The position numbers and the translations under genes are program-made. The notes under the pieces are model-generated. The model was not told the DNA's origin, did not search any database, and saw only the letters and a program-made list of their open reading frames with translations. A stretch of DNA of 64,000 bases from a bacterium (GTDB lineage Bacteria; Babelota; Babeliae; Babelales; RVW-14). This document shows positions 43,717 to 45,369 of this stretch, piece after piece (the stretch's first letter is position 1; every line of letters begins with the position of its first letter). The stretch lies in contig CP064957.1 in the NCBI GenBank assembly GCA_016699045.1, forward strand, positions 537,784-601,783. Reading direction: 5' to 3'.

Positions 43717-44988
43717 TCAATACGGCGGCACGGTATCTAAGCTCTCACGCACATAATCCCACATCTGATCAATATTAGGATTTTGTCCATAATTGCGATT
43801 ATGGCATCCATTTTGTTCATGATTATTATAATAATCACCCAAACACCACCAACAAAAATTATGCCCACATTGACATGTCGTCTGCGGACACATATCACCT
43901 TTTTCAATCGGTACTCTGCATTGCGGATTTGGACAGCGCTTCATGCCCTTGGTTCTAACTTCTTCATCAGTCATAGAATTTTCGGCTTTACGATGCCTAC
44001 GTGCTTCATCAAACGCTATTAACATTGCTCGATAATCTTTATCGTTCTTCATTACTTCAGCAATTTCATTTCTGCTCAAAAAATCGGTACAACCCTTGCA
44101 ACTGTTCGGACAGGCAATTTTATGAAAAGCGCTAGTGCCACGCACTTTAAATGCCTCACGGATCTGCCCCTGCAAGCATTCAGTACAATACGCATGGCCA
44201 CAATGAAGCCTATTTAATTCAATAACTTCATTATCAAGACAGCACACGGGACAACTACCCTGAACTTTTTCCATGGGCGTTGGTGTCAGAAAATCGATAT
44301 AATCTTTTGCTTCATACACAAGCCAGGCAGCATTTGCCATCAACGCAGCGCTCAGTATGATTTTATATTTTGATGTGCTAGCAGATTGTTCAAGGGAGGC
44401 ATATTCCGATAAAAGCTTGGTAAATGAATGAGCAGCTATTGCCAGATTACGTGCCTGCGTAATCTCAAAACGACGTGCTACACCTTCCTGCGTACAAGCA
44501 ACTGCCAACGCCGTTAAACCTTTCAAGCACGGCAAAGCAACAACACGCCAATAATACGCAAGGTGTGAAATTTGAAGTTGTTGTTGTGCATTGACACGAG
44601 ACTCATCTTCGTCCTCATTGATCGGGTCAGCAAACGGATCATACTCTTCTAATTCCTGAATATGTAAAGCTTTAAACTGTTCATAATGTTTGACAAGATT
44701 CTTTATATCAAGCACCACCAACGCAGCGTTAACGGCCATATCGCGACGTTCATAAGTCCACGTTCCTGTATCGCCATTTTGCGCAGCAATGTTGTTATCG
44801 AAGAAATAATATTTGTTTGCCAGCGCCAGCAGATCCGCAGCAATGTGCAACAAAGCAGCTCTTTTTGGCTCTTTATCAAAAAAAGCTTTTTCCGCTGCAA
44901 TCTCAACAGGAATAGTCGACACCGCCAATACCATCTCTCTAAAATTACCCGCAGTTGCAGCATATACTGATGGATGACCAATGTTCAT
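43717..44988 (-). CDS. RBR-like (RING1 + Rcat/RING2) ubiquitin-ligase-like protein
   Basis: 423 aa. RING1 is CPVCC...HCGHAYCTEC...CPNSCKGC (aa 246-300). Rcat-like is CPNPQCRVPIEKGDMCPQTTCQCGHNFCWWCLGDYYNNHEQNGCH (aa 352-396). The gene may extend to the ATG at 45056 if a T7-run frameshift is corrected. Confidence 0.8.
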   Translation of the reverse strand: MNIGHPSVYAATAGNFREMVLAVSTIPVEIAAEKAFFDKEPKRAALLHIAADLLALANKYYFFDNNIAAQNGDTGTWTYERRDMAVNAALVVLDIKNLVKHYEQFKALHIQELEEYDPFADPINEDEDESRVNAQQQLQISHLAYYWRVVALPCLKGLTALAVACTQEGVARRFEITQARNLAIAAHSFTKLLSEYASLEQSASTSKYKIILSAALMANAAWLVYEAKDYIDFLTPTPMEKVQGSCPVCCLDNEVIELNRLHCGHAYCTECLQGQIREAFKVRGTSAFHKIACPNSCKGCTDFLSRNEIAEVMKNDKDYRAMLIAFDEARRHRKAENSMTDEEVRTKGMKRCPNPQCRVPIEKGDMCPQTTCQCGHNFCWWCLGDYYNNHEQNGCHNRNYGQNPNIDQMWDYVRESLDTVPPY

Positions 44989-45369
44989 GAAAAATGCCAG
45001 CGTAAGTACCTTTACAAAAACAGCCGCACAGGTTTTTTTATTAAAAAATAGCTCATGTAAAATACCTCACCCACAAGAAATTTGTATACAAATTAAAAAT
45101 AAATTTTATTTCAGAGTAGAAACATAGCACAAATTTTATTGATTTCAAAAGTATTTTTTATTGCATAACAAGAATTCATATTGAAAAAACAACTACCTTG
45201 AGAAAATATTTTCAGAAATAAACGTTGTGAAAAGTTACGCCAAATACAAGCACTATCAAAAACTTGTAAAAAGAATCGTTTCGTTGTATCTATTTCAAAG
45301 GACCATAATCACTAAACCAACGTTCGCCGTGCTCTTCGAGCTGATCAAAAAAAGACAGGAAGAAGTTTA

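Follow-up and report, generated by a model that had tools for sequence, protein, structure and literature searches.

A putative secreted ubiquitin ligase of RBR descent, lacking the IBR domain, in a Dependentiae bacterium

Results

A RING1-Rcat module in a bacterial open reading frame

The 64,000-nucleotide stretch of contig CP064957.1 analysed here, which we call the window, carries on its minus strand an open reading frame (ORF; 43717..44988, 423 aa as assembled) whose C-terminal part resembles a RING-between-RING (RBR) ubiquitin ligase from which the in-between-RING (IBR) domain is missing. An earlier inspection of the letters by themselves, to which we refer as the sequence-only reading, had pointed to a RING1 and a catalytic RING2 (Rcat) domain in this gene, and its residue numbers, which apply to the ORF, are kept throughout. 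Checked against the translated ORF, residues 246-300 read CPVCCLDNEVIELNRLHCGHAYCTEC...IACPNSCKGC and residues 352-396 read CPNPQCRVPIEKGDMCPQTTCQCGHNFCWWCLGDYYNNHEQNGCH, exactly as quoted there, and nt 43888-43890 are TGT, the codon of Cys367, the cysteine proposed to carry the thioester. The cysteines of the ORF stand at positions 154, 165, 246, 249, 250, 263, 268, 271, 293, 297 and 300 and again at 352, 357, 367, 372, 374, 379, 382 and 395; residues 301-351 hold no cysteine and a single histidine. An identical protein is on deposit as a hypothetical protein.

Residues 244-313 (44050..44259, minus strand) constitute an RBR-type RING1, as delimited by ligand conservation and by alignment to ARIH1 residues 186-250. 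Its ligands, C246, C249, C263, H265, C268, C271, C293 and C300, are followed by a helix, and they align ligand for ligand with ARIH1 184-250, including the ...SCPAHGC last pair (CPxxGC) and the helix after it. Pfam RING models give several sub-threshold matches to the window protein at 245-277 (22.8 bits against a cut-off of 25.2), and in a scan of 14 family members they find 8-9 at E <= 0.01. The hydrophobic residue of the first cysteine pair (CP-V/I-C) and the CP of the last pair, positions through which RING domains contact their ubiquitin-conjugating enzymes (E2), are conserved in the homolog alignment.

The second zinc domain, the Rcat or RING2, occupies residues 348-396 (43801..43947, minus strand) and is recognised through a Pfam IBR match and through the Rcat domains of CUL9, ARIH2 and ARIH1, which bears out the likeness to HHARI (ARIH1) that had been proposed for residues 352-396. 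Its zinc ligands are C352, C357, C372, C374, C379, C382, H390 and C395, with the candidate thioester Cys367 between the second and the third. The Pfam match (IBR, PF01485, residues 336-395) scores 31 bits against a cut-off of 24.3, and a phmmer search of PDB sequences leads to the Rcat of CUL9 and ARIH2. A family profile of the C-terminal 190 residues reaches E = 2e-17 with ARIH1, 6e-16 with ARIH2 and 3.5e-9 with CUL9, and also matches parkin, RNF216 and HOIL-1, ordinary RINGs ranking after these; RING1 and Rcat stand in the profile alignment in the same order as in ARIH1 and ARIH2. The second zinc domain aligns about equally well, at roughly 35 bits, with two domains of ARIH1: with the Rcat (338-405) or, when RING1 and the linker are taken into the alignment, with the IBR. 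It thus lies at 'IBR distance' from RING1, yet it bears the Rcat signature IEK-xxx-C-x-H-xx-C...FCWxC...H...C, and the cysteine in this signature is the one that IBRs lack.

Conservation follows the same lines. In an alignment of 13 metagenome homologs, 29-82% identical to the window protein, C293, C300, C352, C357, C367, C372, C374, C379 and C382 are invariant, and conservation reaches at least 90% at C246, C249, C263, H265, C268, C271 and C395. Full or nearly full conservation extends to the eight ligands of each domain and to Cys367. The combination of RING1 and Rcat patterns in a 423-aa ORF is far beyond chance: a fortuitous spacing of cysteines is excluded because the Pfam IBR match is above its cut-off, because the ligands are conserved in the 13 homologs and because the profile matches ARIH1 with the E-value given above.

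The predicted structure leads to the same group of enzymes. An AlphaFold2 model (mean predicted local distance difference test score, pLDDT, 74) contains the strands and helix of RING1, helices at 319-338 and 341-346, and a small beta Rcat domain. The top 25 Foldseek matches in the PDB are all RBR ligases (parkin, RNF216, HHARI and ARIH2; best E = 4.9e-4, with parkin and RNF216 chains first), at the low template modelling scores that are expected because the protein is flexible and multi-domain.

A helical linker in place of the IBR

What joins RING1 to Rcat is a cysteine-free helical linker, residues 314-347 (43948..44049, minus strand), of 34 aa with no cysteine and one histidine. It resembles the helix region between RING1 and IBR of ARIH1 in the profile alignment and contains a conserved AYDEA motif. 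Neither by cysteine count, nor by Pfam, nor in the structure prediction, which is helical here, was an IBR/BRcat found between RING1 and Rcat of the window protein, as the sequence-only reading had suspected from the lack of cysteines between 301 and 351. Indeed, Pfam detects one IBR-type stretch in the window protein and in the other IBR-less members of its family, and two in the relatives P0029 and P0045. Past the Rcat, the protein ends in a tail (residues 397-423, 43717..43800 with the stop codon, minus strand) that is conserved in the homolog alignment, with the motif ..NP...Q.W.Y.R.SL...PP.

Loss of the IBR raises the possibility that the protein binds host E2 or ubiquitin and forms no thioester on Cys367. 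It might serve as a conventional RING-type E3, ubiquitin going directly from the E2 to the substrate through RING1, or as an inhibitor or decoy that ties up ubiquitin-loaded E2 (E2~Ub). RING1 alone does resemble ordinary C3HC4 RINGs (matches to RNF4, TRIM and TRAF6), and the window copy lacks the catalytic histidine: two residues after Cys367 it has Gln369 (CAG), at a position occupied by His in 12 of the 13 close homologs. This His acts in parkin, HHARI and HOIP as the general base for transfer of ubiquitin to the acceptor, and not for thioester formation; more distant family members have Y, W or A there. What this explanation hardly accommodates is the invariance of Cys367 and of the whole Rcat zinc scaffold in the aligned family, which is difficult to understand if the domain has no catalytic role. 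Also, the 'linchpin' position of canonical RINGs, which comes right after the last RING1 ligand, varies in the family as it does in RBR RING1 domains. We consider a protein of this type, with no thioester step, distinctly unlikely.

A displaced start codon and an interrupted signal peptide

The gene had been drawn up to position 45056. The ATG found there (45054-45056) is conserved and follows a conserved Shine-Dalgarno sequence, GAGG at 45065-45068, at a distance of 8 nt; this region (45054..45068, minus strand) aligns with L008 and L009, its orthologous loci. In the assembled sequence the conserved ATG is out of frame, and the ORF starts at 44988, at an ATG with no Shine-Dalgarno sequence. 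The cause is the loss of 1 nt, compared with both orthologs, in TTTTTTAA-TAAAAAAACC, at about 45040-45042 (frameshift site 45033..45042, minus strand), which is why the assembled ORF begins at an internal Met and the 423-aa product at NCBI starts inside the signal peptide. With one base added, the sequence reads MSYFLIKKTCAAVFVKVLTLAFFMNIGHPSVYAA|TAGN, as in the signal peptides of the homologs, and encodes a 446-aa precursor. The Sec-type signal peptide region, interrupted by the frameshift, spans 44956..45056 (minus strand), with predicted cleavage after ..VYA(A). By alignment, all 13 homologs have a Sec signal peptide with an n-region, an h-region and ..L[HQ]AA|T, and the family hidden Markov model (HMM) aligns to in-frame residues upstream of Met1, in a frame that contains no start codon. 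Signal peptides are predicted in nearly all of the ~55 cluster representatives of the family described below.

Two origins are conceivable for the deletion: a real mutation, or a base lost in assembly from a stretch rich in homopolymers. Overlapping ORFs that seemed to be present elsewhere in the window were considered as a sign of assembly-wide indel errors and turned out to be distinct intact genes; since the other window genes that were checked look intact, the frameshift is not simply to be blamed on an error-rich assembly. This gives some weight to the view that the family may well be functional while this particular copy is decaying or inactive, a pseudogene in the making, deprived of its signal peptide by a deletion that falls right after a conserved Shine-Dalgarno sequence and ATG, and crippled in catalysis by Gln369. 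However, the ratio of nonsynonymous to synonymous substitution rates (dN/dS) is 0.15-0.19 against the two orthologs, in both halves of the gene, which indicates purifying selection during most of its history; together with the otherwise intact frame of 423 codons, this means that inactivation, if any, would have happened very recently. The T6-AA-T-A7 stretch into which the indel falls is of a kind from which bases go missing in long-read assemblies and where slippage of the polymerase can restore the frame, and the Y, W or A found two positions past the catalytic cysteine in other members occurs in intact genes. Decay of this copy, whose integrity is in doubt, is in our view unlikely.

A family-specific N-terminal domain

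Between the signal peptide and RING1 lies a domain (residues 12-236, 44281..44955, minus strand) predicted to consist of six long helices with an acidic disordered loop at 119-139, and modelled by AlphaFold2 with a pLDDT of 81 when taken alone. The sequence-only reading had described the first ~240 aa as helical and devoid of any motif that it recognised, and this description is accurate: the domain has no match in Pfam, NCBIfam, PDB sequences or Foldseek (best Foldseek E = 0.8). The V-ATPase subunit E, its best PDB sequence match, is not a credible relative (E = 1.7). Two of the helices are hydrophobic, with Kyte-Doolittle peaks of 1.2-1.7 over 19 residues that are below or at the usual threshold, so that they are not clearly transmembrane and speak neither for nor against a pore-forming domain. 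The domain, which is common to the ~55 cluster representatives, may serve in targeting, substrate binding, membrane association or translocation.

The family and the history of its IBR

To place the protein among its relatives, we rely on an exhaustive profile search over 1.84 billion cluster representatives, in which 55 proteins match at E < 1e-30, essentially all of them with the same N-terminal domain, and 11,641 match at E < 1e-3, the latter representing the wider RBR world. A scan of genome contigs with the window protein as single query gave no match, and an alignment-based scan gave five loci. One family locus comes from a TM6 metagenome-assembled genome and another member from a Dependentiae bacterium; two loci are labelled 'uncultured Pseudomonadota', and one of these lies among genes for RNase E/G, Pal and a DEAD-box helicase, a plainly bacterial setting. 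The RING1-Rcat module is not rare in metagenomes and defines a sizeable family of proteins with predicted signal peptides. This adds to the sequence-only reading, which regarded RBR-type catalytic modules in bacteria as rarely reported.

HMMs of the family RING1, Rcat and N-terminal domain were run on all 157 retrieved proteins. The distance between RING1 and Rcat proved bimodal, with either 28-68 residues containing 0-1 cysteine or 83-133 residues containing 6-11, the long gaps having mostly the 7-9 cysteines of a canonical IBR. Among the members with the N-terminal domain in which both RING1 and Rcat are detectable, 29 have no IBR, nine have a full one and four are intermediate, three of these four (P0030, P0035, P0039) retaining just the second IBR zinc site, C-x2-C-x4-H-x5-C. 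On a rough neighbour-joining tree of the N-terminal domain (no bootstrap), IBR-plus members are found on several deep branches, half-IBR forms are sister to IBR-plus ones, and the window protein sits in a large IBR-less clade. Because nine members keep a full IBR and four keep remnants of it, a complete RBR was probably ancestral to the family and the IBR was probably lost repeatedly. The IBR-less layout extends to 23 proteins that do not have the N-terminal domain, 19 of which have signal-peptide-like N-termini; five of the eight scanned with Pfam contain ankyrin repeats, and MBS1987577.1 is annotated as Candidatus Dependentiae.

Some further arrangements were seen in the same set. Two consecutive RING1 domains precede a single Rcat in P0015, P0018, P0023-P0026, P0037 and P0038, P0018 being annotated as Candidatus Dependentiae. 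Complete RING1-IBR-Rcat proteins without the N-terminal domain are also present among the top 150 profile matches (P0065-P0157), and 30 of 61 have bacterial-type signal-peptide-like N-termini, which suggests that full RBR modules are likewise common in secreted proteins of uncultured intracellular bacteria. Within P0001-P0050, the first Rcat cysteine pair (residues 352-357 in the window protein) is a C-x4-C of the form 'CPNPxC' in 15 members, none of which has more than half an IBR, with the same spacing and motif as the first IBR knuckle ('CPTPxC') of their IBR-plus relatives; in the 10 IBR-plus members where it could be measured, it is C-x2-C in all 10. Unequal recombination may have given rise to the CPNPxC Rcat as a hybrid of IBR and Rcat, a simple model that the half-IBR members do not fit.

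Another bacterial metagenome contig carries three tandem paralogs of 455, 488 and 469 aa (L006 6593-10957, L007 6450-10814), which we read from their arrangement as a local expansion of the family. At L008, where the adjacent divergent glycosyltransferase gene is kept, the RBR-like protein is 82% identical to that of the window, versus 93% for the glycosyltransferase. Faster evolution than that of the neighbouring gene is a pattern typical of effectors.

Genomic context

The bacterial nature of the gene, also part of the sequence-only reading, is borne out by its Dependentiae context. GlmM, encoded in the window, shares 76% identity with a protein of 'Candidatus Babeliales', and its other matches that carry a name are to Babeliales, Dependentiae or TM6. 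The RBR-like gene itself has a GC content of 0.421, a GC content at third codon positions of 0.349 and a codon usage typical of the window, a native composition that argues for a resident gene and against contamination or recent transfer. A eukaryotic or giant-virus contaminant would have explained a domain type that is otherwise eukaryotic, and giant viruses of the same hosts do encode RBR proteins (weak BFVD matches, best E = 7.8e-3). Yet the identical protein is recorded on a single contig of 1.45 Mb, the gene is packed as in bacteria and has bacterial neighbours, the locus is syntenic in a related metagenome contig, other family loci lie in bacterial surroundings such as the one mentioned above, and a scan of IMG/VR found no relatives. 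Contamination, like chance, is effectively refuted, and we give it next to no credit.

The surroundings of the gene include two candidate regulatory signals, each recognised by pattern match. A promoter-like site, TTGAAA-16-TATGTT with a TG extension, lies at 45121..45148 (minus strand), ~65 nt upstream of the conserved ATG; the consensus scan that found it returned nine sites against 5.8 expected by chance. About 115 nt past the stop codon, between the RBR-like gene and the ankyrin gene downstream of it, a terminator-like hairpin (43564..43601, minus strand) has a 16-bp stem with 11 GC pairs; it is very strong and GC-rich, its T-tract is weak, and it is likely to be a terminator. A scan of the window with Rfam gave no match.

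Beside the RBR-like gene, between GT4 glycosyltransferase genes of a large surface-polysaccharide region, lies an islet of genes for signal-peptide proteins (39788-43340). It comprises an ankyrin protein (39788-40573, plus strand), a protein of 686 aa with no Pfam or NCBIfam match (40668-42728, plus strand) and a second ankyrin protein (42795-43340, minus strand), all three with signal peptides. In Dependentiae, signal peptides have been reported in 44% of the coding sequences and in 78% of the ankyrin proteins, and vesicles have been seen (PMC6561590); the type II secretion system (T2SS), with GspD, is conserved in TM6 (PMC4776705). A large surface-polysaccharide or nonulosonic-acid cluster of this reduced intracellular parasite extends over 4775-32769, mostly on the minus strand. 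Its products include a DegT aminotransferase (22526-23872), a CMP-sugar cytidylyltransferase (25965-26684), NeuB (26690-27787), a PseB-like dehydratase (29478-30470) and an amidase, and one further gene weakly matches a capsule-synthesis protein. An ORF of 619 aa without Pfam or NCBIfam match (32845-34704, plus strand) has the second most atypical codon usage in the window (cosine of 0.785 to the pooled usage).

This setting inside a cell-surface polysaccharide cluster, along with the signal peptide and the hydrophobic helical N-terminal domain, could be taken to mean that the product is a zinc or redox protein of the periplasm or envelope with no link to ubiquitin, its likeness to RBRs reflecting a shared zinc-ribbon scaffold. 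Such a scaffold would have to account for two different domains in RBR order, with their linker and with Rcat-specific motifs, at the E-value obtained for ARIH1, and for relatives with full RING1-IBR-Rcat modules and ankyrin repeats, in an organism that is an obligate intracellular parasite of eukaryotes. We find it very improbable.

Discussion

The best sequence relatives of the window protein are the Ariadne-type RBRs (ARIH1/HHARI and ARIH2, and the RBR of CUL9). It has in common with them the eight RING1 ligands, the CP-x-x-G-C last pair with its helix, a linker like the helix between RING1 and IBR, and an Rcat of the form CP..C-x-IEK-xxx-C-x-H-x-x-C...FCW.C...H...C with the catalytic cysteine in the same register. 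Unlike them, it has no IBR/BRcat, no UBA-like domain and no C-terminal autoinhibitory Ariadne domain, nothing but a 27-residue tail past the Rcat, and Gln in place of the catalytic His; it also has a predicted Sec signal peptide, separated from the ORF by the frameshift in this copy, and an unrelated six-helix N-terminal domain, and it is encoded by a bacterial gene. With parkin, HOIP, HOIL-1 and RNF216 it presumably has in common the two-step RING/thioester mechanism, but their accessory domains (Ubl/RING0, LDD, NZF) are absent from it, and it cannot have, in the same form, their allosteric ubiquitin interface between RING1 and IBR (PMC9834252). Taken strictly, membership of the RBR class fails on the defining IBR and, for the window copy, on the catalytic His as well.

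Among bacterial effectors, the NEL (IpaH/SspH), HECT-like (SopA/NleL) and SidC ligases follow the same presumed logic, taking ubiquitin from a host E2 onto a cysteine of their own and modifying host proteins. Their folds are unrelated, they are delivered by type III or type IV secretion systems (T3SS/T4SS) and none derives from an RBR, in contrast with the Sec signal peptides of the window family; no match of the window protein to NEL, HECT-like, SidC or U-box/NleG families was found in Pfam or NCBIfam, and all its structural matches are RBRs. LubX, NleG, GobX, RavN and the RING ligase of Simkania are likewise cases of a eukaryote-like, E2-docking RING or U-box in an intracellular bacterium (PMC12591485; PMC5819833). 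Unlike the window protein, these RING/U-box effectors are adaptors only, with no catalytic-cysteine domain. A parallel in layout is the RING-Cys-relay ligase MYCBP2, where a zinc-binding catalytic-cysteine domain comes straight after the RING, without an intervening IBR; its tandem-cysteine domain has a different fold, works by a relay of two cysteines and has no homology to Rcat.

As to precedent, to our knowledge RBR ligases are treated as a eukaryotic enzyme class, and SidC and SidE are further classes of bacterial E3 effectors. A 2025 paper on the Simkania RING ligase gives HECT-like, U-box and IpaH-family (NEL) effectors as examples of bacterial E3s, and no RBR-type one (PMC12591485). We found in the literature no description of bacterial or prokaryotic RBR effectors, of IBR-less RBRs or of Dependentiae ubiquitin ligases, with a coverage that is incomplete, so that a prior description is possible.

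Our preferred interpretation is that the gene encodes a secreted effector of a Dependentiae (Babeliales) bacterium that moves ubiquitin from a host E2, through Cys367, to its targets, and we put its probability at roughly 0.6. The precursor would be exported by Sec by means of its signal peptide and would reach the host cell probably via the T2SS of the phylum or via outer-membrane vesicles. There, the six-helix N-terminal domain would direct the protein to a substrate, membrane or compartment. The C-terminal module would work as a cut-down, Ariadne-like RBR ligase, in which RING1 docks the host E2~Ub and ubiquitin is handed to Cys367 of the Rcat as a thioester, to be passed on to targets of the host or of the bacterial surface. 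The IBR would have been lost in the lineage, a single helical linker now joining RING1 to Rcat. The IBR of canonical RBRs, together with the helices that flank it, binds an allosteric ubiquitin and contributes to the positioning of the transfer complex (PMC9834252); with only a helix left in its place, activation and geometry must differ from the canonical ones.

Several points weigh against this interpretation. Efficient transthiolation without an IBR is not guaranteed, precisely because of the role that the IBR plays in canonical RBRs (PMC9834252), and the Rcat part of our model is of only moderate confidence (pLDDT ~64-75). In the window copy, the residue corresponding to the general-base His is replaced (H369Q), and as assembled this copy has no signal peptide, owing to a 1-nt frameshift just past the conserved start. 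Also, a cysteine-rich zinc protein has to cross the periplasm without being mis-oxidised, and a Sec substrate would still need a route into the host cytosol.

Beyond the single locus, we advance more tentatively the idea that IBR-less RING1-Rcat proteins make up a class of their own, widespread in Dependentiae and in protist parasites of similar habit, of ubiquitin ligases secreted through Sec. A eukaryotic RBR of the Ariadne type would have been their source, and the IBR would have been lost repeatedly as they were streamlined. We see this as possible, short of an even chance.

If RING1-Rcat proteins are active, the IBR is dispensable for the two-step mechanism of RBRs. The family, which spans complete, half and no IBR, offers a natural deletion series for the contribution of this domain to E2~Ub positioning and allosteric activation, and its shortest form provides a minimal RING1-helix-Rcat scaffold of ~150 residues. 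It also raises the question of how Sec-exported, zinc-dependent effectors reach the host cytosol; if the wider idea just put forward is true, the six-helix N-terminal domain would be a new module for targeting or membrane translocation, and delivery to the host cytosol would take place without a type III or type IV secretion system. The host-manipulation toolkit of the Dependentiae is almost unexplored, and a bacterial family derived from RBRs would be a fourth means for intracellular bacteria to hijack the ubiquitination of their hosts.

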